From an uncultured Pseudomonadales bacterium (GTDB lineage: Bacteria > Patescibacteriota > Microgenomatia > UBA1400 > MFAQ01): DNA of 64,000 nt. A program made the position numbers and the translations under genes. Each line of letters begins with the position of its first letter. The stretch's first letter is position 1. Below, one piece after another: positions 12,411 to 56,997 of this stretch. The notes under the pieces are model-generated. The model was not told the origin of the DNA and did no database searches. It worked only from the letters and a program-made list of their open reading frames with translations. The DNA lies in NCBI GenBank assembly GCA_964357975.1, contig CAYHNG010000002.1, forward strand, positions 4,560 through 68,559, in the 5' to 3' direction.

Positions 12411-15400
12411 GTTTGGTAGATTGATTGGTAGATAGAAGACCTTTTTCCATGAGCAATCGGAGGAGACTGGTGATCATTCTTAACCGGCCTCCGGAATTGG
12501 TCTCTTTTATTAGTTTATACGCTTCGTCGTAATTTAGCCATTTGACGTCGTCAAACTCTGTGGCGCCGATGGTGATATCGGTAGTGTTGGCTTCTGAAGT
12601 GTAAAAGTAATAATATTTTCCTTTCATCACTACCGGATCTCCCGAATCAGTCACCAAATCTCTTAGTCCTTGTTTTGAAGGAGGAAATTCTATTTTGTCG
12701 ACGGATATCAATTTAATATCCTGACTGCATTTTTTTACAAAATCCTCCGTAACCTCTTCTCCCATTTCCTGAAAGAAGGTTTCCTTGATTGTTTTTTTGT
12801 TGTCCACTCCTCCCTGAGGAAGAGTCCATTGATTAAACGATTTCTGATAAGTCAGAAGAATTTTTTTATCATGCAAGAAACAGCCAACAACACTTGGACG
12901 AAGTCCTTGATTCCTTAGGGCATCAAGATCCCCGAGAGTGGGTTCCTTGAGAGGGGTTGGTGAAACAACTGATGGAGGGAGATTTCTCGACTCCGCTCGA
13001 AATGACGAATCGGTCGGAGATTGCTTCGTTGTTTCACTTCTTCCGCCAGAGGCGGACTGATGCGCAATGACGGGTGTTGATTTTGTGGAAATAGTTTGTC
13101 CGGTGGTTTGAATGGCGGGTGTTGATGGCGGTTTGGAGATAGAGGGAATGACATCCGGAGTAGACACTGTCGATGACGATGGAGGGATTTTGAAAGGGTT
13201 GGGTTTGGATAAGGCCGGAGTGGGAGGAAGTTGGGGGGTGTATGGCGCCTTTGGTGGTGTGGGGGCTGTGGGAGCAGGTGAATTATCAGGGGTTCTAAGT
13301 GCCTTCGGAATATATGGGGGTTCGGTGTATCGTTTGGGAGCCGGGGTCATAATGGCGGTAACTTGAGACATATCCATGGGCTCGATTTTCCGATAGTACT
13401 TCTCATAAGTGGCTTCGAGAACTTTTTCTTTCTGATGAGTGCGAGTATCGGGTAAAGGTAAACCGTAGGATGAAAAAGGTTGTGTCATCTGAGAATCGAC
13501 AGACATTTTCATGGCCAATTGATATTTACCCAACCCAACGAGATCATCTGCGGTGTACAGATTGTTTAACTCTTTCATGATTCGGTCAGCATCTGAAGCT
13601 CCCACCACGTAGCTCATGACCGTACCAACGTTGCCAAAAATGGCGTTTTGAATCTCTTCAGGTAGTTGGGCGATATACTGGTTGGCAAGGACCAGGCCCA
13701 ATTTATATTTTCTGGCCTCAGAAAGTATTTTGACAAAAGAGGAGGTGGCGAAGTTTTGGAACTCATCGACATAGAGAAAAAATTCACGACGTTCCTCCTC
13801 CTTAATGTGGGCGCGATTCATGGCGGCAATTTGAATCTGAGAGATAAACATGGCGCCAAGTAAGGCCGCGTTGTCTTCTCCAATCTTACCTTGCGGAAGA
13901 TTGAGAATAATGATTTTGCCGGCATTCATCATATCCTCAAAATCGACAGTGCTTTTGGGATGGTTGATGATATCTCGGATGGTGGGTGAGGTGACGAATT
14001 GACCAACCTTGTTAAGAATTGGGGCAATTGCTTCCGTTTGGAATTTCTCCGAGTATTTGTCGTATTCATCACGCCAAAAGTTGACAAGTATAGGATCGGT
14101 AACATGAATAAGGCATTCTTTTTCTCGAAAATCTTTATTGGTTAGAATACGAGGGACATCGGCAAGGGTGGTTTCCGGTTTGTAGACTAACGTAAGTAAG
14201 GTGTTTCTGAGGATATACTCAAGACGAGGGCCCCAGGAATTGCCGTAGAGTTTACTAAAGATCGAGACAATACTGGAGGCGACCATTTCGCCTTGTGTCG
14301 GGTTTTTGACATACAGAGGGTTCATCCAAAATGATATCCCAGGTACTGAAGGATCCAGATAAGCAACGTCATTAATACGACTCTCCGGAATGTATTCAAG
14401 AAGAACTTCGGCCGCGTCACCGTGTGGATCAACAAAAGCAACCCCTTCCCCGTGTTGGATGTCATTAATGGCCATGCGACCAATAAGAGTTGACTTTCCT
14501 GTTCCTGACTTCCCCAAAATGTAGGTATGACGGAGGCGGTCGATCCCCTTCTTCATACCGAAGACGGCCAGATGGTTTTTATATTCCGTCTTGGCGAAGA
14601 AATTATAGAGATGCTTTTCACTATCAGGAATTCCCTCATCAACCGGTAAATTGGTGGGCGCTTCACCTTTGAGAGTTTTTCCCCAGGCAATCCCCTTGAT
14701 CGGAGCAAGTAAGACTCCCGGAAGGTGATACATGGCAGCGATCTCACCGTAATTAAGATATTGATACTGATTTGAATATTTCGCGGAGCGATCAAGCATC
14801 ATCTGACGGAGTTTCGTCAGAGAACCGGAGAATTTGTGTTTTTTTAAAGCTAAACTGTTTCCTTCAGACAAGGAATAAGTTCCAAAAGAAGCGGCCAATT
14901 GTGATAATAGCTGTTTTGAGGTGGCTTGATCGGGGGTAATTGCCGCAAGTCGAATATCACAACTAAAAGCTTGGAATAATAATTTTTTTTCGATAATGGA
15001 CTTGTAAGGACTTGGTTTACTTTTGGCCGGATCCGTAGCGGTTGCCGGAGTAACGGTCTCGAGAGAAGACCGAACTGATTTCTGCCAATTTTTGGGGGCA
15101 GCGAACAGACAAATTTGAATAATAGCGGCCTGGCCCGCCGGGACTCTTGCCAAACTGCCCAAGATGGAAGCCATCTGGTCCACCTTATCATCCAAAGTAC
15201 TATTCAGAGAAAGGTTGGATGGTCCGGTGAGAGCCAGCTGGCCAATAGCAGGTTGTCCATAATTCAACCAATCTGGAAGATAATCCTTCATGGGGGTGAT
15301 AAGGGCGGTGGGATACTGGGCGGCTATCTGGGCGCGAACAAGGTGTTCCAGTCGCTCGGGGCAGGCTATGATAAAGAACGTGGTTTGATTAAGGTTGACG

Positions 15401-15561
15401 ATCTCCAAACAAATAGTTTCATGGGTGCCCAACAGACGGTCCATAAAACCGGCCTTGAGTGAAGTTCTCAGAGAGGAAAGAAATTCGATGAAGGCTGCCT
15501 GCCCGGTAAGGGAGTCTTTCGCTGGACGAACCTGCAAAACAGAGTATTTGGGCAAGGCCAT
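12082..15561 (-). CDS. Soluble VirD4/TraD-family (T4CP-like, HerA/FtsK-related) P-loop ATPase with Pro-rich linker and C-terminal degenerate Nudix-like domain
   Basis: Walker A ILGKSGTGKSTLI, VDPHGD, Walker B YVDEFQNF, ARKYKLGLVLANQ C-terminal block. Long P/S/T linker, then WTLPQGGVDNKKTIKETFFQEMGEEV (Nudix-like box with R to Q). No N-terminal TM helices. Confidence 0.55.
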   Translation of the reverse strand: MALPKYSVLQVRPAKDSLTGQAAFIEFLSSLRTSLKAGFMDRLLGTHETICLEIVNLNQTTFFIIACPERLEHLVRAQIAAQYPTALITPMKDYLPDWLNYGQPAIGQLALTGPSNLSLNSTLDDKVDQMASILGSLARVPAGQAAIIQICLFAAPKNWQKSVRSSLETVTPATATDPAKSKPSPYKSIIEKKLLFQAFSCDIRLAAITPDQATSKQLLSQLAASFGTYSLSEGNSLALKKHKFSGSLTKLRQMMLDRSAKYSNQYQYLNYGEIAAMYHLPGVLLAPIKGIAWGKTLKGEAPTNLPVDEGIPDSEKHLYNFFAKTEYKNHLAVFGMKKGIDRLRHTYILGKSGTGKSTLIGRMAINDIQHGEGVAFVDPHGDAAEVLLEYIPESRINDVAYLDPSVPGISFWMNPLYVKNPTQGEMVASSIVSIFSKLYGNSWGPRLEYILRNTLLTLVYKPETTLADVPRILTNKDFREKECLIHVTDPILVNFWRDEYDKYSEKFQTEAIAPILNKVGQFVTSPTIRDIINHPKSTVDFEDMMNAGKIIILNLPQGKIGEDNAALLGAMFISQIQIAAMNRAHIKEEERREFFLYVDEFQNFATSSFVKILSEARKYKLGLVLANQYIAQLPEEIQNAIFGNVGTVMSYVVGASDADRIMKELNNLYTADDLVGLGKYQLAMKMSVDSQMTQPFSSYGLPLPDTRTHQKEKVLEATYEKYYRKIEPMDMSQVTAIMTPAPKRYTEPPYIPKALRTPDNSPAPTAPTPPKAPYTPQLPPTPALSKPNPFKIPPSSSTVSTPDVIPSISKPPSTPAIQTTGQTISTKSTPVIAHQSASGGRSETTKQSPTDSSFRAESRNLPPSVVSPTPLKEPTLGDLDALRNQGLRPSVVGCFLHDKKILLTYQKSFNQWTLPQGGVDNKKTIKETFFQEMGEEVTEDFVKKCSQDIKLISVDKIEFPPSKQGLRDLVTDSGDPVVMKGKYYYFYTSEANTTDITIGATEFDDVKWLNYDEAYKLIKETNSGGRLRMITSLLRLLMEKGLLSTNQSTKHGSEPEPKPERSRTNDPSGRFPDGESRNFQDGSFGSGPVNRIGSQLHSTSVMGRGPISSAGGHSSSRTPSNSVPGSSTLGSDNTAKPDILVDNASGNKSSGNSTPPSTY

Positions 15562-17036: not shown

Positions 17037-17879
17037 CTAAGAAGTTTTTAGGTGGTGGCTGATTGCTCCGGCGAAGTCGGTGGTGTGCAGAAAAGCAGCG
17101 TGAAGATGAACAGTTTCACCGGTTTTTTTAGGAGACATATACAGGAGCTGTATGAGGTAAAAAAGATAATTTAGAGGGGCGAGGACATAAAATATGAGCA
17201 TGGAGTGAGATTTCTCCACTCGTTTCACTCGGTCGAAATGACGAGGACCTTTTTGTAATATCAGGGAAGTGTAGGCGTTGGCTAGATACTTTTTGGTCCA
17301 CCGATTTTCATAAAGAAAAGTCCGATAAGTGTCCCCCCTGTCCAAAAGAGGTACCACCTGGAGTACTTCGTGAGCCGTATATAAATTTCGTTTGTCTATG
17401 GGAACCGAAAGAGACAAGGAATCGAGCCAGAGATTGGGGCAGAAGGCATCAACCGCCGTCGAGTGGTCCTCCCCCGGATGACGCCGACGAAAAAATAGGG
17501 ACATGAGAATGATTACAACCGGGCGGACAAGCCAAAGACAATATGGAGAGGTCACAAAAAGGAGATCTATATCATCATGGGGGTGAGAGTTGCCGGCGGC
17601 CACCGATCCGGTAAGGGCAACCAGCCGAAGGCCGGGAAGAAATCTAAGAGTTTTGACCAGTTTCCGGGCATGTAAGGTTTTCAATTTTGAGGAGTGCGAA
17701 ACGGCCGAACGAAGCCTTTTCTGTGATGAAGTCATGGACGGAGGAAGTAGGCCTTTGATGGACCTAAATGGGACCGACATGGTGGTAACTAGCCAATAAT
17801 GAATCTCCTCAGGCGACAAGGGAAAATGAAAATAATCGGCGTATCTGATGGTTTTCGAAACGGCTCGACGAAGATCCAT
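17037..17879 (-). CDS. Nucleotidyltransferase-domain protein (pol-beta-like) carrying an in-frame family-A repeat
   Basis: LTGSVAAGNSHPHDDIDLLFV motif. The segment PRHFDRVKRVEKSHS is encoded by repeat copy A2. Confidence 0.4.
   Translation of the reverse strand: MDLRRAVSKTIRYADYFHFPLSPEEIHYWLVTTMSVPFRSIKGLLPPSMTSSQKRLRSAVSHSSKLKTLHARKLVKTLRFLPGLRLVALTGSVAAGNSHPHDDIDLLFVTSPYCLWLVRPVVIILMSLFFRRRHPGEDHSTAVDAFCPNLWLDSLSLSVPIDKRNLYTAHEVLQVVPLLDRGDTYRTFLYENRWTKKYLANAYTSLILQKGPRHFDRVKRVEKSHSMLIFYVLAPLNYLFYLIQLLYMSPKKTGETVHLHAAFLHTTDFAGAISHHLKTS
17201..17244. repeat. Family-A repeat, copy A2 (in frame inside the 17037-17879 CDS)
   Basis: GGAGTGAGATTTCTCCACTCGTTTCACTCGGTCGAAATGACGAG. Confidence 0.7.
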
Positions 17880-23673: not shown

Positions 23674-25830
23674 ATGAGGGTGATGGAAAAGAATTACGAT
23701 CACAAAGAATACGAAGAGAAGATATATCGCGAGTGGGAGGCTAGTGGAGCCTTTACTCCCCCTACTGGAGCTGGGGTAGCAAAAACCGGACAGAAGACTT
23801 TAACGATCATTATGCCACCTCCAAACGCCAATGATCCGTTACATGTGGGACATGCGATGTTTGTGACGATCGAGGATATTCTGGTTAGATTCCACAGAAT
23901 GCGAGGTGAAGCGACTCTGTGGCTTCCGGGTACTGATCATGCCGGAATCGAAACGCAGTTTGTCTTTGAAAAGAAATTAGCTAAACAGAAAAAGAGTCGA
24001 TTTGATTTTGATAGGGACACTCTATATCAAATGATCTGGGATTATGTACAAGAAAACTCCGGAGTAGCGATCGAACAAATGAAAAAATTGGGAGCAAGTG
24101 CCGATTGGAGCAGATATAAGTTCACCCTCGACCAGGAGGTGGTCACAGAGGTTATCAAAACCTTTGTAAAGCTACACGAAGACGGATTGGTCTACAGAGG
24201 TGTCAAACTAGTCAATTACTGCACCCGATGTGGGACCGCCTATTCGGAACTGGAAGTGGATCATGAGGATCGAGAGGACAAGCTCTACAAAATAAATTAC
24301 GGAAAAATTATGGTGGCGACTACCAGACCGGAAACCATGCTCGGAGATGTGGCAGTGGCCGTTAATCCGGATGACCCCAGATACAAGAAGCTGATTGGCG
24401 AGAAGGTTGCCTTGCCACTCGTAGGGAGAGAAATACCCATTGTCGGGGACTCAATGGTGGACATGGAGTTTGGAACCGGTGCCGTAAAGATTACTCCGAC
24501 TCACGATCAAAATGATTGGGAGGTAGCGGTAAGGCAAGGGTGGAATATGGAAGAGATTGTCAGAGACTATCAGGTAATCGGAAATAACGGCAAGATGACC
24601 CAGAATGCCGGGAAATATGAGGGGTTGAACACAGTAGAGGCGAGAGAGAAGGTAGTGACTGATTTGGGAGAAGCTTTAATAGAAACGAAACCTTATCTTC
24701 ACAGCGTGGGTACTTGTTATCGATGCCATCGAATAATTGAGCCTTTGCCGATGAAACAATTCTTTATCAAGGTTAAAACTCTTGCAGATAAAGCTCTGAA
24801 AGCTCTCGATCAAGGAGAGACGGAGATTATGGGATCCGGTCATGACAAAATCTTACGTCACTGGCTAAGCAACTTACGAGATTGGAATATCAGCCGGCAG
24901 ATTGTTTGGGGAATAAGAATACCGGTGTGGTATCCACCAAAAGAACTCAAGGAATCAAGAACTCAAGGAATCAAGACAGAAAATGAGGAGTATGTGGTGA
25001 GTGAGAAGAGCCCGGGTGAAGGGTGGATTCAGGAAACAGATACGTTTGATACCTGGTTTTCTTCCGGCCAATGGCCAGTGGTGACACTAAAAACCGGTAA
25101 ACCGGGAGACTTTGAGGCATATTATCCAACGAGCGTAATGGAAACAGCCTATGACATTCTCCCCTTTTGGGTGATGAGGATGATGATGCTCGGCATATAT
25201 ATGACAGGAAAATCTCCCTTTAGAACGGTGTATTTACACGGATTGGTGCGAGATGAAAAGGGAGAAAAGATGAGCAAAAGTAAAGGCAACGTGATCAATC
25301 CTTTGGACTTGACCGAAAAATATGGAGCGGATTCTCTGAGGATGGCCCTGGTCATGAGCACGACGCCAGGACAAGATAGCAACACGGGAGAGAACAAAGT
25401 ACGGGGTATGAGAAATTTCGGGAATAAGATTTGGAATGCGGGAAGATATGTGTTGGAACTTGGATCAATAATGTCAGATGGAGTGAGATTGCCACGTCAC
25501 TCCGTTCCTCGCAATGACGGCGTTGGAGGAGAGAAAGATGATGACTTTGAAAAGAAGATGGAGGTAATAAAAAAGGAATTAACCAGATTGTTGGAGGATA
25601 ACCGTGTCGGACTGGCGGCGGAGTATATTTACAATGAATTTTGGCACTGGTTTTGTGATGAGCAGATTGAAGAAAATAAACAAGGAAGGATTAGTGACGA
25701 GGTCCTCAAAGCTGGATTTGAATCATTTTTGAAAATGCTTCACCCGTTCGTCCCCTTTGTGACGGAAGCGGTGTGGAAAGAGGCGTTTCCGGAGGAAGGA
25801 TTGATTATTAGTCAGAAGTGGCCGATTTAA
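23674..25830 (+). CDS. valS: Valine--tRNA ligase (short form lacking C-terminal coiled coil), with an in-frame family-A repeat
   Basis: PPPNANDPLHVGHA (HIGH) and KMSKSKGN. The peptide GVRLPRHSVPRNDG is encoded by repeat copy A3. Confidence 0.9.
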   Translation: MRVMEKNYDHKEYEEKIYREWEASGAFTPPTGAGVAKTGQKTLTIIMPPPNANDPLHVGHAMFVTIEDILVRFHRMRGEATLWLPGTDHAGIETQFVFEKKLAKQKKSRFDFDRDTLYQMIWDYVQENSGVAIEQMKKLGASADWSRYKFTLDQEVVTEVIKTFVKLHEDGLVYRGVKLVNYCTRCGTAYSELEVDHEDREDKLYKINYGKIMVATTRPETMLGDVAVAVNPDDPRYKKLIGEKVALPLVGREIPIVGDSMVDMEFGTGAVKITPTHDQNDWEVAVRQGWNMEEIVRDYQVIGNNGKMTQNAGKYEGLNTVEAREKVVTDLGEALIETKPYLHSVGTCYRCHRIIEPLPMKQFFIKVKTLADKALKALDQGETEIMGSGHDKILRHWLSNLRDWNISRQIVWGIRIPVWYPPKELKESRTQGIKTENEEYVVSEKSPGEGWIQETDTFDTWFSSGQWPVVTLKTGKPGDFEAYYPTSVMETAYDILPFWVMRMMMLGIYMTGKSPFRTVYLHGLVRDEKGEKMSKSKGNVINPLDLTEKYGADSLRMALVMSTTPGQDSNTGENKVRGMRNFGNKIWNAGRYVLELGSIMSDGVRLPRHSVPRNDGVGGEKDDDFEKKMEVIKKELTRLLEDNRVGLAAEYIYNEFWHWFCDEQIEENKQGRISDEVLKAGFESFLKMLHPFVPFVTEAVWKEAFPEEGLIISQKWPI
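25490..25520. repeat. Family-A repeat, copy A3 (in frame inside valS)
   Basis: GGAGTGAGATTGCCACGTCACTCCGTTCCTCGCAATGACGG, with a 7 bp GGAGTGA/TCACTCC stem. Confidence 0.7.
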
Positions 25831-34185: not shown

Positions 34186-34255
34186 ATATTTAATTTATGC
34201 CATAAAATACCCGAAGTCAATAATTAGCATTATTGGAGTTAAGTATTATTTATTT

Positions 34256-34288
34256 GTCATCTCGAGCGTAGTCGAGAGATCTTACTCC
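34256..34288. repeat. Family-A repeat, copy A4a (inverted orientation)
   Basis: GTCATCTCGAGCGTAGTCGAGAGATCTTACTCC, the reverse complement of the family consensus. It forms a head-to-head pair with A4b. Confidence 0.6.
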
Positions 34289-34306
34289 ATTTTGATGCGA
34301 ATACTT

Positions 34307-34336
34307 TGAGATTTCTCCACTTCGGTCGAAATGACG
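34307..34336. repeat. Family-A repeat, copy A4b
   Basis: GAGATTTCTCCACTTCGGTCGAAATGACGGG. Confidence 0.6.
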
Positions 34337-34899: not shown

Positions 34900-34995
34900 T
34901 GGTTGTTCTCCTTTTTAGGGTGCCGGTGTGTTCTAAGAGGGTATTGTACCTTCAAATCGGGCAAAATGATAGTTCTGGGAGAATCGGAGGAGAGA

Positions 34996-35448
34996 TTATT
35001 TGAGTTTGGGGAGGAGGGAGGAGAGATCGGCAAGAAGGTCGGGGTGAGGGGTGTCGAGGACGGAGCGCTTGGGGATGACCAGGTAATCGGCGGGGAGGAA
35101 TTGGGGGAGTAGTTCGGCTAAGAGGGCGGAGGTGACACGTTTGATGCGGTTGCGGTCGACGGCGAGACGGGCGGTTTTTTTGGACAATAGAATGGAAAAT
35201 CTAGGGACGAGGGGATTTGTCGTATGGAGACCTGCAAGGACTCTCCTTGCAGGAATGACGGAGGTTTGGGTGGAGTGAGATCTACCCCTTCGGGTACCAT
35301 CGGCCCCGACTGCGCTCGGGATGACAGAAGAGAGGGGGGTGGGGGCAGTGACGATGGTGAAGTGGCGGGTGTGGAAGGATCGGCCTTCACGGGTGAGACG
35401 ATCACGCTCTTTGCGTAGGGGAAGCCGGTTTGTGGCCGGAAGTGGCAT
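34996..35448 (-). CDS. rnpA: RNase P protein component, carrying about 33 aa of in-frame repeat-derived insertion
   Basis: LSKKTARLAVDRNRIKRV core. The extra segment SSVIPSAVGADGTRRGRSHSTQTSVIPARRVLAG is encoded by the composite family-A element A5. Confidence 0.75.
   Translation of the reverse strand: MPLPATNRLPLRKERDRLTREGRSFHTRHFTIVTAPTPLSSVIPSAVGADGTRRGRSHSTQTSVIPARRVLAGLHTTNPLVPRFSILLSKKTARLAVDRNRIKRVTSALLAELLPQFLPADYLVIPKRSVLDTPHPDLLADLSSLLPKLK
35231..35327. repeat. Family-A composite (long) element A5, inside rnpA
   Basis: CCTGCAAGGActcTCCTTGCAGG hairpin plus AATGACGG, then GGAGTGAGATCTACCCCTTCGGGTACCATCGGCCCCGACTGCGCTCGGGATGACAG. Confidence 0.65.
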
Positions 35449-35449
35449 T

Positions 35450-35587
35450 TTAGAGCGCTAACTTGGTTCGGCCCTTAGCTCGGCGACGTTTGATGACATT
35501 ACGACCGGAGGCACTGGCCATCTTAATACGGAAACCGTGTTTTCTGATACGTTTGACTTTTTTGGGTTGGTAGACTCTTTTGGGCAT
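35450..35587 (-). CDS. rpmH: 50S ribosomal protein bL34
   Basis: Translates to [45 protein letters not shown]. Absent from the ORF track because it is under 60 aa. Confidence 0.9.
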
Positions 35588-35610
35588 ATAGGGTGATTGT
35601 TGTTTAATTC

Positions 35611-35648
35611 GTGGAGTGAGATTCCTCGACTACGCTCGGAATGACATG
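35611..35648. repeat. Family-A repeat, copy A6 (intergenic between rpmH and dnaA)
   Basis: GTGGAGTGAGATTCCTCGACTACGCTCGGAATGACATG. Confidence 0.7.
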
Positions 35649-35852
35649 ACACGTGACTGGTGAGTATTATACCTGATAAATGTCCGGAGCGAATGGATGG
35701 TAATTTTGATGGAGACCAATAAGGAACCTCCTCGCAGGACTACCTACAAGGAAGATCCTTGTAGGGGAGCTGGATTTGTGATGTGGATAGTATTATTCTT
35801 TTTGGGTAATTTGGGGGTTGTAAAAATGTGGATAAGTAGTGAGAATGGGCGT

Positions 35853-37235
35853 ATGGACAGTGAGAAGTTATGGCATAGCATTTGCGGTGAGTTGGGCGTT
35901 TCGATGTCTCCCGCCAGTTTTGCAGGCTTTATCAAGCCTTGTTTCTTGCGATCGGTAACTCCGATTGATGATCAACGACTGCTTTTGGAGTTGGCGGCTT
36001 CATCTGTTTTTTTGAGTCACACCATCGAGACCAAGTATTACAGTCTCATCAAACAAGCCGCCGAAAAAATTTCCGAAAAGAAGTGTGATATCGCTTTGAT
36101 TGTGGTTGAAGCTACCAAAGAAGTTAAGTTGAGTAAAAAGGAAATCAATAAGATGGGGGAGGTAAATGAGACCAGCATTGGACTATTTACCCCACAGGAG
36201 GAGAATAAACAAACCGGAACCAATCTGAATCCCCGTTATGTTTTTGAGTCATACATGGTGGGAAGTTCGAATAGACTGGCTTTCGCCGCCGCCAAAGCAG
36301 TGGTCGACTATCCCGGCACCAGACACAACCCACTATTTATCTATGGGGGAGTCGGGGTTGGAAAGACTCATTTGATGCATGCGGTAGGACATGAACTGGT
36401 CAAAAAAGGAGTGGGTAAAGTAGTCTGTGTGACAAGTGAACAGTTTACGAACGATTTGGTCGGTTCGTTTAAATCCAAAATGACGGATGCTTTTAAGAAA
36501 AAATATCGACAGGTAGGAGCATTGCTGGTAGATGATGTGCAGTTTTTTGGGGGAAAAGATTCAACACAAGAAGAGTTCTTCCATACCTTTAACGAACTGA
36601 CAAATAAACAAGCGCAGATTATCATGACGAGTGACCGAAAACCACAAGAGATCGTCGGTTTGGAGGATAGACTACGAAGCCGCTTCTTGGGTGGCATGAT
36701 GGTGGATATTGGTTTACCGGACTACGAGATGAGACTGGCGATTTTGCGGCAGCGAGCACTAGATATTAAAGCAGAAGTAGAAGATAGTGCCTTTGAACTA
36801 ATTGCCAATAGCTATCCAACAAATGCCCGCGAGCTGGAAGGAACTTTCGTCAGGCTAGCCACAGGTGCCAGTATTGACGGGGGAGTCTTAACCAGAGAAA
36901 TGGTACAGCAAACAATGGGACTTCCGGCCAATACTGTGAAAGACATTAAAGTGCGACCGATCAAGGTGATCTCGACAGTCGCCAAGTATTTTGATTTCAG
37001 AAACAAAGATCTCTTGGGGGAGAGTAGGAAGGCCGACTTGGTAGTGGCGAGACACATTGCCATGTATATTCTGAGAGAAACACTAAAGCTTAATCTGACT
37101 GAAGTCGCGGAGTTGATGGGAGGCCGAGATCATACTACAGTGATGCATGCATGCGAGAAAATGGAGCTAGAAATTGAGAAAAATATGGATATCAGGCGTA
37201 AAGTAATGGCTCTGAAACAGGCGTTATACACCTAA
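35853..37235 (+). CDS. dnaA: Chromosomal replication initiator DnaA
   Basis: Walker A GGVGVGKTHLMHAVG and C-terminal DNA-binding domain. Start set at MDSEKLW (35853) because the longer track ORF from 35697 contains DnaA boxes TGTGGATAG and TGTGGATAA and odd hydrophobic sequence. Confidence 0.8.
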   Translation: MDSEKLWHSICGELGVSMSPASFAGFIKPCFLRSVTPIDDQRLLLELAASSVFLSHTIETKYYSLIKQAAEKISEKKCDIALIVVEATKEVKLSKKEINKMGEVNETSIGLFTPQEENKQTGTNLNPRYVFESYMVGSSNRLAFAAAKAVVDYPGTRHNPLFIYGGVGVGKTHLMHAVGHELVKKGVGKVVCVTSEQFTNDLVGSFKSKMTDAFKKKYRQVGALLVDDVQFFGGKDSTQEEFFHTFNELTNKQAQIIMTSDRKPQEIVGLEDRLRSRFLGGMMVDIGLPDYEMRLAILRQRALDIKAEVEDSAFELIANSYPTNARELEGTFVRLATGASIDGGVLTREMVQQTMGLPANTVKDIKVRPIKVISTVAKYFDFRNKDLLGESRKADLVVARHIAMYILRETLKLNLTEVAELMGGRDHTTVMHACEKMELEIEKNMDIRRKVMALKQALYT

Positions 37236-38878: not shown

Positions 38879-39875
38879 ACCAGGCTTCCGGTGGTAACTG
38901 TAACTGTGGGTAGATCCTGGTGATGGCCTGATCTTTTGAAAGTATCCAAACCAGACCTTTATTTTCCGAGAAAAGCACCATGTCGTTTTTTTGATTTACT
39001 GACGGTTTTATTTTCAGATTTAGTCTATTGATTTGTGAAGAGCTGGTGATAATTTGTTTGAATTGCTGTTTGCCGATATCGACCAACATGATGAAGTCGA
39101 GTAACCTTGGTTTGGTGACTTTTTCGACTAGATATAATTCGTCTTTTAGCCAAAAAGTGATAGATTCTTTGGTCGTATCGTCGAGCTTTATTTTGTTTAA
39201 TCCTTCGATATAAAGATACAAATACTCATTGTCTGTTGCGACGACGACCTTATTGTTTGAAGTGATTGAGATCGGATTGAACTGATTGGCTGTTTTAGCT
39301 ATCTCCGATTTTTGATTAGTGAGAAGGTTAACTACGTATAGTGATTTCTTGTCCTCAGACAAGGCGATAATCGAATTTGGTTTTTCGTACCAAATATAAC
39401 TAAAATACTCTCTTTCTTTTTGAGTGATGTCTTTTTCGACTAGAGTTTTCAAATTTAAAATTTTTTCTTTTTCAGGGGAGATTACCAAAGCCTCGCCATT
39501 GCTATTCAGGAGAGCAACTTCATTATTAGCAAGTTTTTTTATGGCTGTATTTGTGTAGGGGTTAAATATTTGTTGGTCCTTTATGACAATAGGAATATCA
39601 CCCATCCAACCTAATGATATGCTTTTATCTGAATTTGGAAGATGCCAAAACATAAACTGATACTGTTTCATGAACTTTTCAAACTCTGATTCGATTTGCA
39701 TAGTTGGTTGGACGGTAGGTTGCGTTTTTGTAGGTTCTAGAGGCTGGGGCGATGATGAAAATGGTTTGCGACTTTTGGTGAGGGTGTTTTGAGCGAATAG
39801 AATTAGTATGAGGAAGATAATTCCAATTACGATTATTAGCGTGGTTTTTTTGATTCGAGCTAGATTTAAGGACAT
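38862..39875 (-). CDS. Membrane-anchored extracytoplasmic protein; by position a PrgL/VirB8-like candidate
   Basis: N-terminal TM anchor, Pro-rich linker and beta-rich body. Translationally coupled (10-nt overlap) to the upstream hydrolase gene. No diagnostic motif. Confidence 0.35.
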   Translation of the reverse strand: MSLNLARIKKTTLIIVIGIIFLILILFAQNTLTKSRKPFSSSPQPLEPTKTQPTVQPTMQIESEFEKFMKQYQFMFWHLPNSDKSISLGWMGDIPIVIKDQQIFNPYTNTAIKKLANNEVALLNSNGEALVISPEKEKILNLKTLVEKDITQKEREYFSYIWYEKPNSIIALSEDKKSLYVVNLLTNQKSEIAKTANQFNPISITSNNKVVVATDNEYLYLYIEGLNKIKLDDTTKESITFWLKDELYLVEKVTKPRLLDFIMLVDIGKQQFKQIITSSSQINRLNLKIKPSVNQKNDMVLFSENKGLVWILSKDQAITRIYPQLQLPPEAWSNSAP

Positions 39876-42607
39876 TGTTGTTTGACTCGATTAATAAAAT
39901 AATCCAAAAATTCTACACCAGGATCATTCTTTCCCGGTCGTAATTCGTAATGCCCAAAGATCTGAGTGTAGGGAATATGGTACTGCTTCATCATAAAACA
40001 AGTAGAATTGACGGAAGACTGAATTTCTGCTTCACTGGGTGATTTTTCCTCCGGTTTGGTGGGAGATGTTCCGGGCGGAATAAACCAAGCTCCTACCATT
40101 TCATTGTTGAGACAGTAGTTATTTTCATTCCCCCCAACACAGTAGGCGAGCTCCGCCTTCTTTTCCCACATTTGTTGCCATTGCTGAACCGAGCCGTCTT
40201 GGTCGGTGCCAATTTGGCAAGAGAGACCCCTTTCTACAAGGGTATTGTAGGTGACATCATTGTTGGTCCAACCGCCACTCCAGTGGATGGTGATTTTGGT
40301 GGGGATGATACAGTAGCCGGATCTTCCTGGTCCAGTCAGAAGTTTTTTAACTACAGGGAATGATCCTGCCTGTACCATAATTTCGGCACCAGAGTCTTCT
40401 CCACAGTCCAGATTGTATACTCCACCACCAGGTTCTGTTCCTGGTCCCGGTCCACCACCCGGCCCTCCACCACCGCCATATTCTGCATAATCGACCTTAC
40501 TAAGACTATCGAATTGAACAATGGTGGAGAGGATGGGAGCAATTAAATAAGATATGGCAACATAAAGTCCTACGACAATGATAGCTCCGATAATGATACC
40601 TATGGCAGAAATCACGGCAATCTGGACAGATCTTCTGAGAATGATTAGTCCACGTATAAAAGTGGTCCCTGCGGTGACGGCGACCGCTCCTGCAGCAACG
40701 ACGGGAATAATCAAATCTCTAGATCTGAATTTGTCTCCCCAGCCCAGTTCTCTCCAAGTATTATCTAATCCTTTTTTGGCTAGACCGATGGTTTGTTCAG
40801 CAACAAAAATGATGGCTTGAATGGCAACATCAACGATGACTCCTAGTCCGGGAATAATGGCATTGAGAGACTCGGCCGTCACACTAATACCAAGCTTGAC
40901 AGCGGCCCAGGTAACGACTTTGACAGCCGCTTTGGAAAGAGCTTGAGAAGCTAGCTTTTTGACTCCATCTTTAAGACCCTCCCTCAACAACAGGTTAGGG
41001 GCATTTTTGAGAGCCTCACTCCCGAATCTTTCAACCAACCTCTTGGCTATTTGTTCGCCGGCTTTTTTACCGGCCCATTGTTTGAGAGATCCAACCGGGT
41101 TCGTAACTATACCGATGATTTGGTTGCCTTTACTTACAGCCTGAAGAACATCTTTGCCGAGTTTGGAGTTTTCTATCTCACGGATAGAGCGTCTGGCGGC
41201 TTGAAAAACTTTGGTATTGTTGGCGAGAAACTTAGCGGTAGCCGAATTGGGGTTGGTGGTGGCGTATTTTTCGGCTTGGCGAAGAACACTACCGGAAACT
41301 CCTTTGGAATAGGCCAGTATGGCCTGACCTTGACCTCCTCCAATGATGGCGGCGGCTTGGGCACCTTCATAACTGGCATACTGGTGAATTCCGGGAATGT
41401 CTTTTTGAATAACAGTGATCAGTCCGGCGATTTTGTCCAGATCCGAAAAACCTCTGGGTTCGATTCCTTTGCTCTTGAAGGCATTATCGTATAGATTCTC
41501 CTGGATCTTAAAAACTTTGTCGTTAGCAGCATTAGAGAATTCCAAGAGATCCTGGTCTTTTTTTTGATGATCGGCTATTGCCGAAGTGTGTTGTTTGTAT
41601 CTCTCTGATTGGGAGTCAACAAAATCAGTAAACCGGGTGGATGTTTTGTTGAGACTAGAGGTGAGACTAGAGTTGACTTTGAGCAATTCAGCAAGTTGTT
41701 TCTCTTCGGAAGCAGAAAGGGTGGCTTTTGAATGCAGAATATCGATGGCGGCTTCGTTTTGGGACAACTTATCTTCAATGTCTCTGATTTCCAGTTCGAT
41801 ATCATTAATTTCTTCAACTACTTCCGAGACAAAAGAAGTGGAAATATCTTTCACTCCTAGTTGAAGAGAAACTGTTTGAATAGCAACATCAAGATCGATG
41901 ATACCGATGGTGTTTAGTTCGACTGCCTGCGAAATTATTTGGTTTTGAAGATGTGGTGAGAGTTCTTCAAAACCTTCATAGGTAAAGGCTATACGCTGGA
42001 CAGCTTTGTAAGATGGTGCAAGTGTATTTTTTACTGAGCCATCTTTGGGTGAGCCGAGATCAACAATGGTTTTGTCGATATCACGAAATTTTTCTCCCGC
42101 CTCTTCGCGTTCACGGCGATTGGCCATGATTTGTTCGCGGATATTGGAATGAGCGAGAGCAATCTTGACTTGTTCGGCGACGGTGCGTTGACCACTGGAC
42201 TTAACCTCCTTTTCGTTTAACCGAGCTTGATTTTGACGATATTCTTCGACGAGACCTTCAATTTCCGGGGGAACAGAAGTCTCCTCCTTAACAGATTGTC
42301 TTCCTCCTTCTCCCTCGTCCTGATTTGAAAGCCAACTGTAGAAATTGATAATTTCTTGTATTTCAACAGCATCAGAAACAAACTTTTTAAAATTATTGGT
42401 GTTAACTAAATGATTTTCAACCAGAGAAGTGGGCCATAAAGTGATCTTTTTGTTGATCTTCTTAAGTTGTTTGAAATAGTTGTGGTAATAACCAGAGCCG
42501 ACACTAAACCATTGAAAGATATCATTCTGATTTTTTTCGGTTATTTCGCTTCGGAGTGCCTTTTGAACTTGTCCCAGCTCGTATATTTCTGTCTCGTAAT
42601 TGGCCAT
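39866..42607 (-). CDS. PrgK-like T4SS cell-wall hydrolase: long coiled coil, TM segments, Gly/Pro linker, C-terminal amidase_2/PGRP-like domain
   Basis: Central TM helices (VAAGAVAVTAG...IGIIIGAIIVVGLYVAI), a GGGGPGGGPGPG linker, and C-terminal ITIHWSGG...FGHYELRPGKNDPG (amidase_2-like). Sits immediately downstream of VirB4. Confidence 0.5.
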   Translation of the reverse strand: MANYETEIYELGQVQKALRSEITEKNQNDIFQWFSVGSGYYHNYFKQLKKINKKITLWPTSLVENHLVNTNNFKKFVSDAVEIQEIINFYSWLSNQDEGEGGRQSVKEETSVPPEIEGLVEEYRQNQARLNEKEVKSSGQRTVAEQVKIALAHSNIREQIMANRREREEAGEKFRDIDKTIVDLGSPKDGSVKNTLAPSYKAVQRIAFTYEGFEELSPHLQNQIISQAVELNTIGIIDLDVAIQTVSLQLGVKDISTSFVSEVVEEINDIELEIRDIEDKLSQNEAAIDILHSKATLSASEEKQLAELLKVNSSLTSSLNKTSTRFTDFVDSQSERYKQHTSAIADHQKKDQDLLEFSNAANDKVFKIQENLYDNAFKSKGIEPRGFSDLDKIAGLITVIQKDIPGIHQYASYEGAQAAAIIGGGQGQAILAYSKGVSGSVLRQAEKYATTNPNSATAKFLANNTKVFQAARRSIREIENSKLGKDVLQAVSKGNQIIGIVTNPVGSLKQWAGKKAGEQIAKRLVERFGSEALKNAPNLLLREGLKDGVKKLASQALSKAAVKVVTWAAVKLGISVTAESLNAIIPGLGVIVDVAIQAIIFVAEQTIGLAKKGLDNTWRELGWGDKFRSRDLIIPVVAAGAVAVTAGTTFIRGLIILRRSVQIAVISAIGIIIGAIIVVGLYVAISYLIAPILSTIVQFDSLSKVDYAEYGGGGGPGGGPGPGTEPGGGVYNLDCGEDSGAEIMVQAGSFPVVKKLLTGPGRSGYCIIPTKITIHWSGGWTNNDVTYNTLVERGLSCQIGTDQDGSVQQWQQMWEKKAELAYCVGGNENNYCLNNEMVGAWFIPPGTSPTKPEEKSPSEAEIQSSVNSTCFMMKQYHIPYTQIFGHYELRPGKNDPGVEFLDYFINRVKQQCP

Positions 42608-42609
42608 AG

Positions 42610-44514
42610 TTAGGGATTAGATGGCTCGGCGATTTCTTGGGGTTGGTCCTGAGAAGCGGCTTCGGCGGCGGCACGAAGTTTGTCTTGCTTTTGCCGTTCA
42701 AGAATCTCAGCCGGCTTACTGGTAGCCAGAGCGTGTTCATCAGCAGAGGAAATAATTTTGATGGCCACGTGATTCATGCCAGCAAAGAAGATACCTTCTC
42801 CAACGCCGGCCGAAAGAAGTAATTGTTTCTCCCCTTGAGAGAGATAGAAGACTTCGGAGATTTGATTGATAGCGGCGGATGACTGTTTGAGTAGTAATTT
42901 GAGAGCCGAGTTGGTGATGATGGCTTTGCCGTAGGCTGAACCCAGAAAGTCGTCAACGTTTTGTGAAATGATGGAAACACCGAAGTAATACTTACGTGCG
43001 CGTTTGACAAAGCCTTGAAGGATTTTGGCTGAATCTTCATAGCGCATCAAGTACCAAGCTTCATCAACGACGAGCATTCTTTTGCGAAGATTTTTGCGAA
43101 CTTCGTTCCAAACAAAGTCCAAAATCATAAACATAATGATGGGCCGAATCTCATCGGCGGTATCCCGGAGGGTAAAAACAGTAATGGGAGCATTGATATC
43201 AATATTGCTCTGCTGATCGAAGATACCTTTGACGGCACCCATGACGAAACGTTCAAGCCTGGCGGCTAGTGTTTTACTAACAGCTTCTTCCATACCGATC
43301 AGGGAACGATAAAGATCTTCCATGCGTGGTGGTTCGAGAGTGTGAGTGGATGGGTCTTCGGTAATGCCTTTTTGGCGATAAGTGAGAACAAGAGCGCGGT
43401 TCATGGTAGCTTCTTCAATGGGATCCATTTGACCAATCATGATTTTGAGAAGAGACATGAGGAAAAGGTATTTGTAGCCCATTTCGTCTTCGGTACTCTC
43501 TTTGGGTCGAGCAATTTGGAAGGGATTAATTTTGTGGGAGGCGCTGGCCGAAAAAGAGAGGTAGTTACCACCGACCGATTTGGTGACCATTTCGTACTCG
43601 TTTTCAGGGTCGAGAATAATTACCTGGCAATCGAACATAAGAGATCGAAGAATCTCGAGCTTAACAGCAAAAGATTTTCCGGCACCGGAAGTGGCTAAAA
43701 TGAGCATGTTAGCATTTTCGAGGGAGAAACGGTCGAAAATAACGAGAGAGTCGTTATGGGCGTTGATCCCGTAAAGAATTCCTTGATTATCGGAGAGTTC
43801 GGAGGAAGTAAAAGGGAAAGTCGTGGACAGAGCAGTGGTGTCCATATTTCTTGTGAGCATAAGTTTATCCTTGCAATAGGGAAGAGTGCTTTTGAATGCA
43901 TCTTCCATTGAGAGGGATGCAATCTTGCTGATGATTAAAAGTGACGCCAACATAGATTGAATTTGGGCGGTAGAGGTATCCAATTCTTTTTCGGATTCGG
44001 CGGAGATGCTGACATAGAGTGAGAATTGAAAAAACTTCTCGGCGCCTTTGACAAGCTGAGATTGGAGAACTTTGGCGTCTTCGAGACCGGCTTCGGTAGC
44101 GGCACGAGGAATGCGACCTCGTTCGATATCGGTGTTTATTTCAGCTTCCATCTCGGCAATACGGCGGCGTAAACTATCGAGAGTATCTTTGGAGTCTGAG
44201 GGGTAGATAAACATGGAAATGTCCAAAGAGTGGTTGAAGTTGATTAAAGGAGAGAGCCAGTTGGCGGAAACGTAGCGAGGATAACCGGTGACAAAAAGAG
44301 TACGGATATAAACATCGTCAATTTTGATGTGAGAAAAATCGACTTCAACGGCAGAAGGGGCGATAATATCTTGGATAGATTGACTAGAAGCGGCGGATTT
44401 TTGATCTACAGTTGAGGGAGTAGCTTGCGTGACATTAGAAACCGGCGGGGTGACGGGTGTAGAGGTAGCCGGTACGCTTTGTTTTTTGCCAAGAGAAAAA
44501 AGGTTCAAAGCCAT
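42610..44514 (-). CDS. VirB4/PrgJ/TrbE-family T4SS ATPase
   Basis: Walker A ILATSGAGKSFA, ILDPENEY and Walker B MLVVDEAWYLM (the DEAW hallmark), with a VirB4-like N-terminal domain. Confidence 0.75.
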   Translation of the reverse strand: MALNLFSLGKKQSVPATSTPVTPPVSNVTQATPSTVDQKSAASSQSIQDIIAPSAVEVDFSHIKIDDVYIRTLFVTGYPRYVSANWLSPLINFNHSLDISMFIYPSDSKDTLDSLRRRIAEMEAEINTDIERGRIPRAATEAGLEDAKVLQSQLVKGAEKFFQFSLYVSISAESEKELDTSTAQIQSMLASLLIISKIASLSMEDAFKSTLPYCKDKLMLTRNMDTTALSTTFPFTSSELSDNQGILYGINAHNDSLVIFDRFSLENANMLILATSGAGKSFAVKLEILRSLMFDCQVIILDPENEYEMVTKSVGGNYLSFSASASHKINPFQIARPKESTEDEMGYKYLFLMSLLKIMIGQMDPIEEATMNRALVLTYRQKGITEDPSTHTLEPPRMEDLYRSLIGMEEAVSKTLAARLERFVMGAVKGIFDQQSNIDINAPITVFTLRDTADEIRPIIMFMILDFVWNEVRKNLRKRMLVVDEAWYLMRYEDSAKILQGFVKRARKYYFGVSIISQNVDDFLGSAYGKAIITNSALKLLLKQSSAAINQISEVFYLSQGEKQLLLSAGVGEGIFFAGMNHVAIKIISSADEHALATSKPAEILERQKQDKLRAAAEAASQDQPQEIAEPSNP

Positions 44515-44543
44515 GATTTAAGTATAACTGAAGTTAGGAAGTT

Positions 44544-45194
44544 TTAGGAGGCGTTTGATCTTCCTGGAGTGATTGCCTGAGTAACACTGCCTTGATTGTA
44601 GATAGTATAAAAGAGAGTGACCAATTCACTGGTAGTTAGCTGGTTAGCCTTAAGACCGATCCTGGCGAACTGACGAATAATGTGATCGCGTCTGGGGTAG
44701 AGAGCCATAGAAGCTTTCTCTTCGATATACTGCAGATCGAAAGGAGGTTTTTGGGGTGATTTGGATAGAGGATTGAAGCTGGATTTGGTCAGACCCAGTT
44801 CGACCGCAGAGAAAGAGACGATAACGTAAAACTTTTTTTCGAGGACACGATTTTCTTTGACAAGAGACTTTACAAATTGCCGATAGGAAAGAAGCTGTTC
44901 TTTAACCTTCTGCGAAGGGGTAATCTGGATACGATTATCCAGAAGGTTAATGTAATCGGATATATTTTTGCGCTGTGATCTGATGAGAATTTGAATAGAG
45001 AAAGACAGCGAATTTAACAAACCGGCATAGCCGTAAATGGTAGCATCTTGCTCTTCTTCGGAAAGCAAATTGAAGTTGATGGCAGTGGTTTTGAGAACCA
45101 ATGAACAAGAACCATCTTTCAAAAAAATCAAATGGTTTTTGATGGTGTAGATGTCTAGGCTTTCCTGTGTTGAGGATTTGATGTTTTCGGACAT
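44544..45194 (-). CDS. T4SS-associated hypothetical protein (216 aa)
   Basis: Tightly packed between the PrgI-like gene and VirB4. No motif recognised. Confidence 0.4.
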   Translation of the reverse strand: MSENIKSSTQESLDIYTIKNHLIFLKDGSCSLVLKTTAINFNLLSEEEQDATIYGYAGLLNSLSFSIQILIRSQRKNISDYINLLDNRIQITPSQKVKEQLLSYRQFVKSLVKENRVLEKKFYVIVSFSAVELGLTKSSFNPLSKSPQKPPFDLQYIEEKASMALYPRRDHIIRQFARIGLKANQLTTSELVTLFYTIYNQGSVTQAITPGRSNAS

Positions 45195-45196
45195 GA

Positions 45197-46201
45197 TTAG
45201 ATGGCTTGAATTTTAAGAGGTCGAATAATGGCTCCGGAAAGGTCGAGAGAGTATGGGGAAAAAGTAAAATCTTCTTTTTCGGCCAGGATTTGATAAAGGC
45301 CATTTTCCAAAGGGCGGGCAAACATAAACTGGCCGAGTTTGTTACTTTTGGTAGCTCGGGAGGTGAGTCCGTTGTGTTGAATTTCCACCAGGACTCCGTC
45401 GAGAATTTTTCCTTCCGGGGTCAGAGTCAGGCCGACAAGAGTGTTGGGGGTCGTAGGGGTGAAAGGAATGGGGAGCTGGGCTACTTGGGAAGTTGTTGGT
45501 TCAGGGTTGCTGGTTATTTCAACCACAGGCTGATCTGCCTTTGGCTGAGGTGCGGGTGTGATGGAGGGGGATTTCTCCACTACGGTCGAAATGACGGGAG
45601 TGACTGACGCGGTGGGGGTGGGTGTAACGGATTCCGGTAGAGGAGCATTTGGGGTGATGATGACAGGAGTGATTTGGACAACGGGGGGTGACGTAATAGG
45701 GGTTGTGGAGTGAGATTCCTCCACTCGGGTACCAGCGGCCTCCGCTCCCGCCTGCAAAAGCTGTGCTTTAGTGTCTGCGGGCAAGTCGGTCGGAATGACA
45801 GATGGGGAAGTATCGGTGACACCAGTAGAGAGCTCGATACGAGCGTTAGAGACGGCTTGAGTACCAATATTGGGTCCGGTAGGTAAGGCCATATCCTCAT
45901 CTACTACTTTGGAATGTCTCCAAATATATTGAGTAGGTGAATAAATTGAGCGGATAAAAGCAAGAATCCAGACATCCAAAGAGCGTCCTTGAACCGGGAC
46001 AAAAGCCATACCTACTCCAAGAACAATAAAAAGAAAGGAGAGTGGATACTTAAAGAAGAAAGGCAATGGCAAACTGTAAATTACGATAGCCAGAACAATA
46101 GAGATGCCAAGTGAGGCGAACTGTTTGATGGTCATGTCACCGATCAGGCGGAAGCGGTAGGAACTGATGTCTTGTGGTAGTGGATGTTGTTGGATGGCCA
46201 T
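45197..46201 (-). CDS. PrgI/VirB3-like two-TM protein with long Pro/Thr-rich extracellular tail; contains two in-frame family-A repeats
   Basis: N-terminal FRLIGDMTIKQFASLGISIVLAIVIY...LSFLFIVLGVGMAF (PrgI-like two-TM module). The tail includes the repeat-encoded segments TPVISTVVEKS and SVIPTDLPADTKAQLLQAGAEAAGTRVEESHS. Confidence 0.45.
   Translation of the reverse strand: MAIQQHPLPQDISSYRFRLIGDMTIKQFASLGISIVLAIVIYSLPLPFFFKYPLSFLFIVLGVGMAFVPVQGRSLDVWILAFIRSIYSPTQYIWRHSKVVDEDMALPTGPNIGTQAVSNARIELSTGVTDTSPSVIPTDLPADTKAQLLQAGAEAAGTRVEESHSTTPITSPPVVQITPVIITPNAPLPESVTPTPTASVTPVISTVVEKSPSITPAPQPKADQPVVEITSNPEPTTSQVAQLPIPFTPTTPNTLVGLTLTPEGKILDGVLVEIQHNGLTSRATKSNKLGQFMFARPLENGLYQILAEKEDFTFSPYSLDLSGAIIRPLKIQAI
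45562..45600. repeat. Family-A repeat, copy A7 (in frame inside the PrgI-like gene)
   Basis: GGAGGGGGATTTCTCCACTACGGTCGAAATGACGGGAG. Confidence 0.65.
45705..45800. repeat. Family-A long variant, copy A8 (in frame inside the PrgI-like gene)
   Basis: GTGGAGTGAGATTCCTCCACTCGGGTACCAGCGGCCTCCGCTCCCGCCTGCAAAAGCTGTGCTTTAGTGTCTGCGGGCAAGTCGGTCGGAATGACAG. Confidence 0.7.
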
Positions 46202-56903: not shown

Positions 56904-56997
56904 GGTTCGAAGTGCGCAAAATATCGTACTCGACCTCCGTCCCTCGAGTACGAGTGCGGATCCGCTCCGTGCGAAATTTTGCTTGCCCTTCTGCACC
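56904..56997. repeat. Family-C direct repeat, copy C1 (about 95 bp, nested palindromes)
   Basis: GGTTCGAAGTGCGCAAAATATCGTACTCGACCTCCGTCCCTCGAGTACGAGTGCGGATCCGCTCCGTGCGAAATTTTGCTTGCCCTTCTGCACC, about 93% identical to C2. Contains GTACTCGA...TCGAGTAC and GCAAAAT...ATTTTGC stems. Confidence 0.75.

Follow-up and report, generated by a model that had tools for sequence, protein, structure and literature searches.

The 64,000-nt stretch of DNA analyzed here, which we call the window, comes from an uncultured Collierbacteria bacterium of the Candidate Phyla Radiation (CPR), and carries on its minus strand, at 34996-35448, the gene rnpA, which encodes the protein component of RNase P (RnpA). The product is 150 amino acids (aa) long, whereas canonical RnpA has about 110-120 aa, and the difference is due to a repeat-encoded connection between strands β2 and β3. 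We consider it very probable that repetitive extragenic palindromes (REPs) of the CGTC type, similar to the palindromic elements of Rickettsia (RPEs), became part of the rnpA coding sequence and are tolerated in a permissive loop of the protein. The insert DNA consists of two neighboring repeat modules. A preliminary description of this DNA had proposed that two adjacent modules, in frame, enlarge RnpA to 150 aa, and three results bear this out: the Pfam profile of the protein family is matched end to end, a covariance model of the repeat family (R1) matches the second module, and the motifs of the family are enriched in the window.

Repeat modules in rnpA and the fold of RnpA

The rnpA open reading frame (ORF) was identified by its match to PF00825 (Ribonuclease_P) and by structural comparison with Foldseek. 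Residues 3-149 correspond to profile positions 1-108 of 109 in a single stretch (E = 3.6e-16), and the score of 59.6 bits against a cut-off of 22.3 places the protein in the family. Because the profile is matched end to end as one stretch, the extra length of RnpA must be internal. Relative to the shortest RnpA among the relatives (110 aa, in locus L007) there are 40 additional residues, all between β2 and β3, so that the loop between conserved flanks is 48 aa long here vs. 8 aa in L007; the peptide SSVIPSAVGADGTRRGRSHSTQTSVIPARRVLAG occupies aa 40-73.

In the AlphaFold2 model, built with the homolog alignment, the core elements (helix 11-21, strands 23-26, 30-35 and 83-86, helix 96-116, strand 121-126, and C-terminal helices) are confidently predicted, with a predicted local distance difference test (pLDDT) of 83-95, and residues ~36-82 are unstructured (pLDDT 43-54). 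The N-terminal core (aa 1-35; α1, β1, β2; 35344-35448, minus strand) has pLDDT values of 86-95 and the C-terminal core (aa 82-150; β3, the RNR-motif helix, β4, α3; 34996-35205, minus strand) of 83-95; for the expanded β2-β3 connection (aa 36-81; 35206-35343, minus strand) the mean is 43-54, with no secondary structure. Foldseek aligned the model with 1a6f (TM = 0.83) and 3q1q_A (TM = 0.80; both normalized to target length). The likeness to canonical RnpA (Bacillus subtilis 1A6F, Thermotoga maritima 3Q1Q chain A) consists in the fold, the conserved basic helix, and the place of the gene after rpmH. In the VDRNRIKRV segment the R-N-R residues do not vary among 28 homologs; ILLSKK, A96, R99, N100, I102 and R104 of the C-terminal core are likewise invariant. 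The β2-β3 loop is reportedly the "metal-binding loop" (Stams et al. 1998). The metal-binding loop of RnpA has been reported to lie close to P3 of RNase P RNA (PMC2858038); binding of substrate and RNA takes place at the central cleft and at the RNR helix (PMC4919922). Judged by its position at the β2-β3 connection, the insert would lie away from both the central cleft and the RNR helix.

Module 1 (35226-35261, plus strand) comprises GGAGA, a perfect palindrome, and AATGACGG, as seen in its sequence, its hairpin, and the comparison with locus L002. The palindrome (35231-35253) is a perfect 10-bp inverted repeat by sequence and by folding, with arms CCTGCAAGGA (35231-35240) and TCCTTGCAGG (35244-35253) around the 3-nt loop CTC (35241-35243), and is followed by AATGACGG (35254-35261). 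Folded as RNA, the palindrome gives a stem of 10 bp (-16.5 kcal/mol, z = -4.9); none of 200 shuffled sequences folds as well. Module 1 codes for SVIPARRVLAGLH (aa 63-75). A 10-nt spacer, AGGTTTGGGT (35262-35271, plus strand), which codes for TQT and parts of the adjoining codons, separates it from Module 2 (35272-35327, plus strand), a 56-nt member of the GGAGTGAGAT-hairpin-ATGAC family that lies antisense to rnpA. Module 2 begins with GGAGTGAGAT (35272-35281), ends with GGGATGACAG (35318-35327), and codes for SVIPSAVGADGTRRGRSHS (aa 41-59). It contains exact matches to GGAGTGAGAT and CGCTCGGGATGACA, and R1, trained without the copies in this rnpA, matches it at 35271-35325 (21 bits, E = 0.0012); it looks like a basic 34-nt unit with a small nested hairpin, TACCC-CTTC-GGGTA. 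The palindrome, the element sequences and their positions are as first described. The suggestion that the duplicated SVIP tetrapeptide marks the two ends of an element needs amendment. The SVIP codons at aa 41-44 (TCT GTC ATC CCG) and aa 63-66 (TCC GTC ATT CCT) are indeed GGGATGACAGA and GGAATGACGGA, both of them ends of the form G(G/A)ATGAC(R)G, read from the opposite strand, but each tetrapeptide marks one end of a module, the CGTC-tag end, and not both.

The ratio of nonsynonymous to synonymous substitution (dN/dS) was 0.13 over the 34 codons upstream of the insert and 0.17 over the 68 codons downstream. Since purifying selection acts on both halves, one reading frame must cross the insert. 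With the CGTC strand of the units taken as sense, on average 2.19 of the three frames are open, compared with 1.41 for the other strand, which helps explain how units survive inside genes. Predicted tryptic peptides spanning the insert junctions are VLAGLHTTNPLVPR and HFTIVTAPTPLSSVIPSAVGADGTR. A contig of a Hainich groundwater assembly in ENA is 100% identical over 18,040 bp; the region is thus not a one-off assembly error.

Variation among relatives and the dispersed repeat family

The protein homologs of RnpA bear the names Collierbacteria or Microgenomates. In the alignment of 28 homologs the core is conserved, and the segment from FTLVTAP (β2) to PRFSILLSKK (β3) varies, with 0 to ~70 extra residues. 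Among the relatives the loop ranges from 8 aa (L007) to 77 aa (L017) and holds zero to five units, and every allele is in frame. The sister genome L002 (DnaA 95.7% identical to that of the window) shares Module 1 and has another second hairpin; L003 and L008 (94-95%) have other units of the family, and L001 and L005 (92.9% and 81.5%) a different palindrome pair. Two units are present in L018 (80.9%), one with the same core as the copy at 35613-35646 of the window. L017 (89.8%) has five head-to-tail units and an RnpA of 179 aa; L007 (89.6%), with its 8-aa loop, is nested among the loci just named in the DnaA tree. L006 has a 13-aa loop without a unit of the family. The sister clade L009-L016 has RnpA proteins of 108-116 aa, no inserts, and one of the 24 R1 matches in the related loci. 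The insert peptides of different alleles have no common character. Certain read-through peptides recur in homolog loops (SVIP, VIPAKAGIH, SSLRGG..DVAIS, GQALKGT, PARRVLAG). Two checks attached to the preliminary description come out in its favor: relatives carry different units or none at the same place rather than one diverged ancestral segment, which is the reverse of what would have refuted it, and the insert is a low-confidence, unstructured β2-β3 connection in an otherwise confident RnpA fold.

The tail junction beside β3 (GGTCTC(AC)TCCAyC...) is common to the window, L002, L003, L004, L018 and L140. The unit next to β3 is therefore probably old, and the diversity of the loop reflects accretion, exchange and deletion as well as new insertions. 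L002 reads GGAGACCGGCAAGGACTCTCCTCGCAGG at the position of Module 1. The tie between Module 1 and the family is given by L004 and L140, where that position reads GGAGTGAGA-CCTGCC.... Module 1 is older than Module 2, for the sister genome L002 shares it and more distant relatives have the same tail junction. It is best described as an eroded or variant unit, orthologous to that of L002.

The gene of L140 is in frame, the gene caller having chosen a later start. Two truncated homologs, P0022 and P0024, were considered as frameshifted rnpA and rejected: P0022 stops at a contig edge, and P0024 is intact with a GTG start. Elsewhere in the protein, the rnpA genes of L004 and L140 (1352-1806) have a second in-frame insertion, SPARQTA[K/T]LSAG, between α2 and β4, derived from the same unit as their β2-β3 loop, and P0011 and P0012 have QPASPKAGFP between α2 and β4. 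In L002, two units follow directly after the rnpA stop codon (10393-10500); at 34970-35000 the window keeps a tail-like remnant, AATCTC-TCCTCC, a case of a unit decaying by deletion.

Units of this kind are dispersed. Allowing at most one mismatch, GGAGTGAGAT has 13 matches in the window vs. 5.5 expected, a number reached in none of 100 shuffles; seven are exact, all on the plus strand. The 3' motif CGCTCGGRATGACA, with at most two mismatches, has six matches vs. 0.56 expected (about tenfold). The family has the architecture RTGGAGTGAG-AT-[stem/loop, 14 to ~75 nt]-AT-GAC(R). We built R1 from 28 copies, leaving out those in this rnpA, and applied a threshold of E ≤ 0.01; it found 12 sites in the window, 11 of them on the plus strand, and 24 in 19 related loci (306 kb), 23 in the same relative orientation. 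A tail-anchored regular expression gave 38 matches in the window and 16 loci vs. 11 in shuffles. Metagenome stretches contain at least ~45 stem-complementary copies among the 120 matches listed. A more permissive scan for a hairpin plus ATGAC was dropped, as its 50 + 14 matches compare with a shuffle mean of 55, and a DNA search for units with a fixed-length pattern gave no match.

In the 28 aligned copies A11, T12, A31, T32 and the ATGAC end are invariant. Positions 3-5 of the stem are paired with covariation; the outer stem has five pairs, of which position 4 covaries (G-C 47, T-A 26, C-G 21). Basic units of 34 nt consist of the five outer pairs, an internal loop, about two inner pairs and a loop of 4-5 nt. 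Longer copies, up to ~95 nt, contain inner hairpins whose arms are unrelated between copies but complementary to each other. Pairing of the tail with the interior (GGAGTG with CACTCC, a possible pseudoknot) was seen in some copies and found no consistent support across copies. Rfam returned no match across the window at gathering thresholds, nor at E ≤ 1 for 34900-35900, so that the units do not belong to a described RNA family.

On the sense strand of rnpA the units read (C/T)GTC-AT-stem-loop-AT-tail, an architecture that fits the CGTC-tagged REPs. The text of Di Nocera, De Gregorio and Rocco (2013, BMC Genomics 14:522, PMC3733652) describes CGTC-tagged REPs with the tag CGTC or its variants TGTC and CCTC, a stem of 8-9 bp whose first pairs are A-T and T-A, a loop of 4-5 nt, and a short unpaired tail, mostly CCA. 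These REPs include Rickettsia RPE-4 and RPE-6 and Neisseria dRS3, occur in frame inside genes, have no known transposase, and mostly form head-to-head dimers, according to the same text. The tag is present in both modules (CCGTC-AT in Module 1, CTGTC-AT in Module 2, sense strand). The A-T/T-A opening is invariant in the family; Module 2 keeps AT...AT with about three of the five outer pairs, and Module 1 is without the 5' AT. Module 1 has a 10-bp stem and a 3-nt loop, Module 2 is composite, and a canonical 8-bp/4-nt unit is found in L017 (ATTCCTGC-CTTC-GCAGGAAT). Some units end in AT-CCA (L017, L008), but most have the longer AT-CTCACTCCA; the tail is usually CTCACTCCA(Y), GGAGTGAG on the other strand, as against CCA in the published description. 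Further points of likeness to that description are dispersal in many copies, heterogeneous stems, occasional in-frame occurrence in genes, and the lack of a dedicated transposase nearby. Nested extra hairpins are frequent here, unlike in the REPs as published there, and only one inverted pair occurs in the window (34255-34336), the remaining copies being single or head-to-tail.

In-frame palindromic repeats are best known from Rickettsia. The units here are likewise palindromic and lie in frame in genes that are unrelated and often essential, in a genome that is reduced, and the ORF runs on through them; rnpA and the gene of a class I aminoacyl-tRNA synthetase (aaRS) both have in-frame insertions and insert-free relatives. 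Classic RPE-1 is ~150 bp long and encodes a conserved peptide, whereas the units here have 34-95 nt and a peptide that depends on the frame, and arrays of up to five units in one loop are also unlike RPEs. The connection with RPEs is made only through the placing of RPE-4 and RPE-6 in CGTC families in the text of that REP study. With GTAG REPs and REPINs, which go with REP-associated tyrosine transposases (RAYTs; IS200/IS605-like, Y1), the family shares a short hairpin with a conserved unpaired tetranucleotide and a strand behavior compatible with processing of single-stranded DNA; the tag is CGTC/TGTC and not GTAG, and copies do not form inverted doublets. Miniature inverted-repeat transposable elements have terminal inverted repeats and target-site duplications, whereas here there is one hairpin with differing unpaired ends, and no duplication is visible in comparison with L001, L002, L003 and L008.

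The 11 of 12 copies that R1 placed on the plus strand lie there regardless of the strand of the host gene, and GC skew is positive throughout the window. In unrelated metagenome contigs (loci L019-L138), among the matches listed, 27 of 29 stem-complementary copies were on the G-rich strand, compared with 33 of 54 chance matches to the same pattern, and the mean skew of the flanks, with elements masked, was +0.124 for the former vs. +0.024 for the latter. Orientation relative to host ORFs in these listed matches was mixed (11 to 7). A bias toward the G-rich strand together with mixed orientation relative to host ORFs indicates that orientation follows a replication-associated asymmetry and not transcription. 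Elements of the IS200/IS605 type are single-strand, replication-coupled elements with such strand behavior. The bias of the units suggests strand-specific insertion or retention linked to replication. Cumulative GC skew rises across the whole window, including dnaA-dnaN and rpmH-rnpA, and no skew-defined origin was found beside dnaA within the window.

Origin of the insert and competing explanations

The sequence of events that we favor is as follows. CGTC-tagged, REP-type units would have inserted into the β2-β3 connection of rnpA in a Collierbacteria genome, and, with the CGTC sense strand usually open in two or three frames, ribosomes would read through them. The product would be a normal, selected RnpA core with ~40 extra, probably disordered residues on one loop, and the inserted peptide would be a by-product of selfish or neutral DNA at a permissive site rather than a designed domain. 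The loop may have served as a long-lived landing pad, in which the unit beside β3 (Module 1) stems from an old insertion common to members of the clade, and later units such as Module 2 were added, exchanged and deleted, leaving zero to five in close relatives. The units may move by a strand-specific process coupled to replication, as do IS200/IS605 and RAYT elements.

Several observations weigh against this account or parts of it. Alignment of the window with L001, L002, L003 and L008 shows many unit-sized indels, with no target-site duplication and no clean pair of empty and filled sites, and, given the tail junction common to several clades, some of the diversity may stem from a single old insertion plus recombination rather than from many independent events. 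No transposase, including Y1_Tnp/RAYT, was found among the 38 window ORFs scanned with Pfam. The hairpins formed by the basic 34-nt units are weak in thermodynamic terms (z ~0 to +1). Module 1 is not matched by R1, is without the 5' A-T of the stem (GGAGA directly followed by CCTGC), and has a tail eroded to GGAG(A); its place in the family is argued from the AATGACGG end, the GGAG remnant, and the comparison with L004 and L140. Read-through translation is deduced from open frames and dN/dS, and the peptide is presumed to be neutral.

The hairpins might act instead as RNA or DNA, in translation or stability of the rpmH-rnpA mRNA or as strand-specific signals of the chromosome, with their coding being incidental. 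Module 1 forms a strong hairpin, and the covariation of stems implies that pairing is maintained; orientation tracks the replication-related strand, and REPs elsewhere have been proposed as RNA elements in the text of the CGTC study (PMC3733652). Yet number and type of units are unconserved at the rnpA loop, the Module 1 copy of L002 has two mismatches between its arms, the basic units fold weakly, and Rfam has no match; we regard a role at this level as improbable, although it fares better than the other rivals. Slightly less probable still is an adaptive extension, in which the repeat-derived, partly basic peptide (GTRRGRSHS, PARRVLAG) would be retained because it added contacts between RnpA and RNase P RNA or substrates, in a lineage with reduced RNAs. 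It would agree with the occupation of the loop in most members of the clade, with the apparent age of the unit beside β3, and with a metal-binding loop reported near P3 (PMC2858038), a loop taken here to be the β2-β3 loop. Against it, genomes whose DnaA is 90-96% identical have inserts of wholly different sequence, length (8-77 aa) and charge, L007 has no insert and L006 a 13-aa loop without a unit, both with a conserved core, the segment is predicted to be disordered, and the same units are also present in proteins unrelated to RnpA and between genes.

An ancestral, fast-evolving, low-complexity loop that resembles repeats by coincidence would fit a loop variable in all relatives, but it is already contradicted by units near-identical to intergenic copies and found by a model trained elsewhere, and by the short loop of the outgroup clade, and we give it almost no credence. 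Nor is an assembly artefact or a pseudogene credible to us, for although repeats can break assemblies and P0022 ends at a contig edge inside a repeat, a second assembly record contains an identical 18-kb contig, purifying selection acts on either half of the gene, and at least 11 independent metagenome-assembled genomes have in-frame inserts at the same site.

The insertion of CGTC-type units into a permissive loop, the reading that we prefer, extends the process of in-frame palindromic repeats to a CPR bacterium and to one of the smallest essential RNA-processing proteins, and identifies a natural permissive site in RnpA. New are the CPR host lineage, rnpA as a host gene and as a hot-spot of up to five units, the distinctive tail, and the co-orientation with GC skew, which differs from the mostly head-to-head dimers described in the text of the REP study and is a clue to how CGTC REPs move. 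CPR or Patescibacteria are not named as hosts in that text, its species-listing Figures 1 and 2 aside; rnpA is absent from the lists of REP-bearing genes in its supplements; and we found no literature report of such elements in CPR/Patescibacteria or in rnpA. Annotators should be aware that SVIP, VIPAKAGIH, SLRGG..DVAIS and PRNDG in CPR proteins represent repeat read-through.

More speculatively, and with the balance of probability clearly against it at present, Collierbacteria may harbor active CGTC-type elements that insert only into the G-rich strand (the presumed lagging-strand template) and repeatedly build head-to-tail arrays in the same permissive loops of essential proteins (the β2-β3 loop of RnpA, the aaRS linker, and others). 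If this were true, accretion of repeats would be one of the main sources of variation in protein length in these minimal genomes, and the family would be the first of CGTC REPs with a strand behavior pointing to a single-strand mechanism coupled to replication, a pointer that could help in finding the missing mobilizing enzyme.

Copies in other genes and neighboring features

Units inside genes are a general phenomenon in this genome: nine of 14 family copies in the window lie inside ORFs. The copy in the class I aaRS gene (GVRLPRHSVPRNDG, 25480-25519, plus strand; R1 52.4 bits) is in frame in an ORF at 23674-25830 (plus strand), in the linker that joins the catalytic domain to the anticodon-binding domain; L006 has it as well as the window, and L003, L007 and the sister clade L009-L016 lack it. 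R1 also found two tandem copies (12974-13072, plus strand) in a 1159-aa ORF (12082-15561, minus strand), in the linker between TraG/VirD4-like coupling-protein domains (aa 344-662) and a NUDIX domain (aa 889-1019); reading through repeats that lay between genes may have given rise to this fusion. Two more R1 copies (45563-45596 and 45707-45800, plus strand) are in the long C-terminal extension of a PrgI-like ORF (45197-46201, minus strand), and another copy (17202-17243) is in an ORF with a nucleotidyltransferase domain (17037-17879, minus strand).

Upstream of rnpA, directly adjoining it in the same operon, is rpmH (ribosomal protein L34; 35450-35587, minus strand; PF00468, E = 1.4e-19), and dnaA follows at 35697-37235 (plus strand), which is the usual dnaA / rpmH-rnpA arrangement. 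The spacer between rpmH and dnaA (35588-35830) is packed with units (35613-35646, 35743-35765) and has indels of 70-113 nt relative to L001, L003 and L008. Its canonical 34-nt copy (GGAGTGAGATTCCTCGACTACGCTCGGAATGACA, 35613-35646, plus strand; R1 49.8 bits) has an identical counterpart at the orthologous place in L002. A second palindrome of the Module 1 type, CCTACAAGGA AGA TCCTTGTAGG (35743-35765), lies either upstream of the longest dnaA ORF or in its extreme 5' end, in a segment that L001, L003 and L008 lack. These three loci also lack the first ~27 codons of that ORF, which fall inside the spacer indels, and the DnaA_N match starts at residue 57; the true start of dnaA is therefore probably further downstream. 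On the other side, downstream of the gene adjoining rnpA, R1 found the inverted pair of 34255-34288 (minus strand) and 34303-34336 (plus strand), the former being the only minus-strand copy that R1 found in the window.

The dnaN-dnaA region is flanked by a type IV secretion-like cluster (39866-46201; PrgI-like, TraC-like, VirB4-like, M23/amidase). Next to this cluster, six paralogous small ORFs (107-122 aa; 57088-59273, minus strand) form an array; the one scanned matches the T4SS_pilin Pfam family. Finally, a 95-nt repeat with sharp boundaries occurs at 56904-56997 and 60429-60522 (plus strand) in two copies 94% identical. Rfam has no match to it, and none of the 141 loci compared contains it. 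Its fold is a closed structure of several hairpins (-38.5 kcal/mol, z = -4.1), and the repeat may be either a small RNA or some other mobile element.

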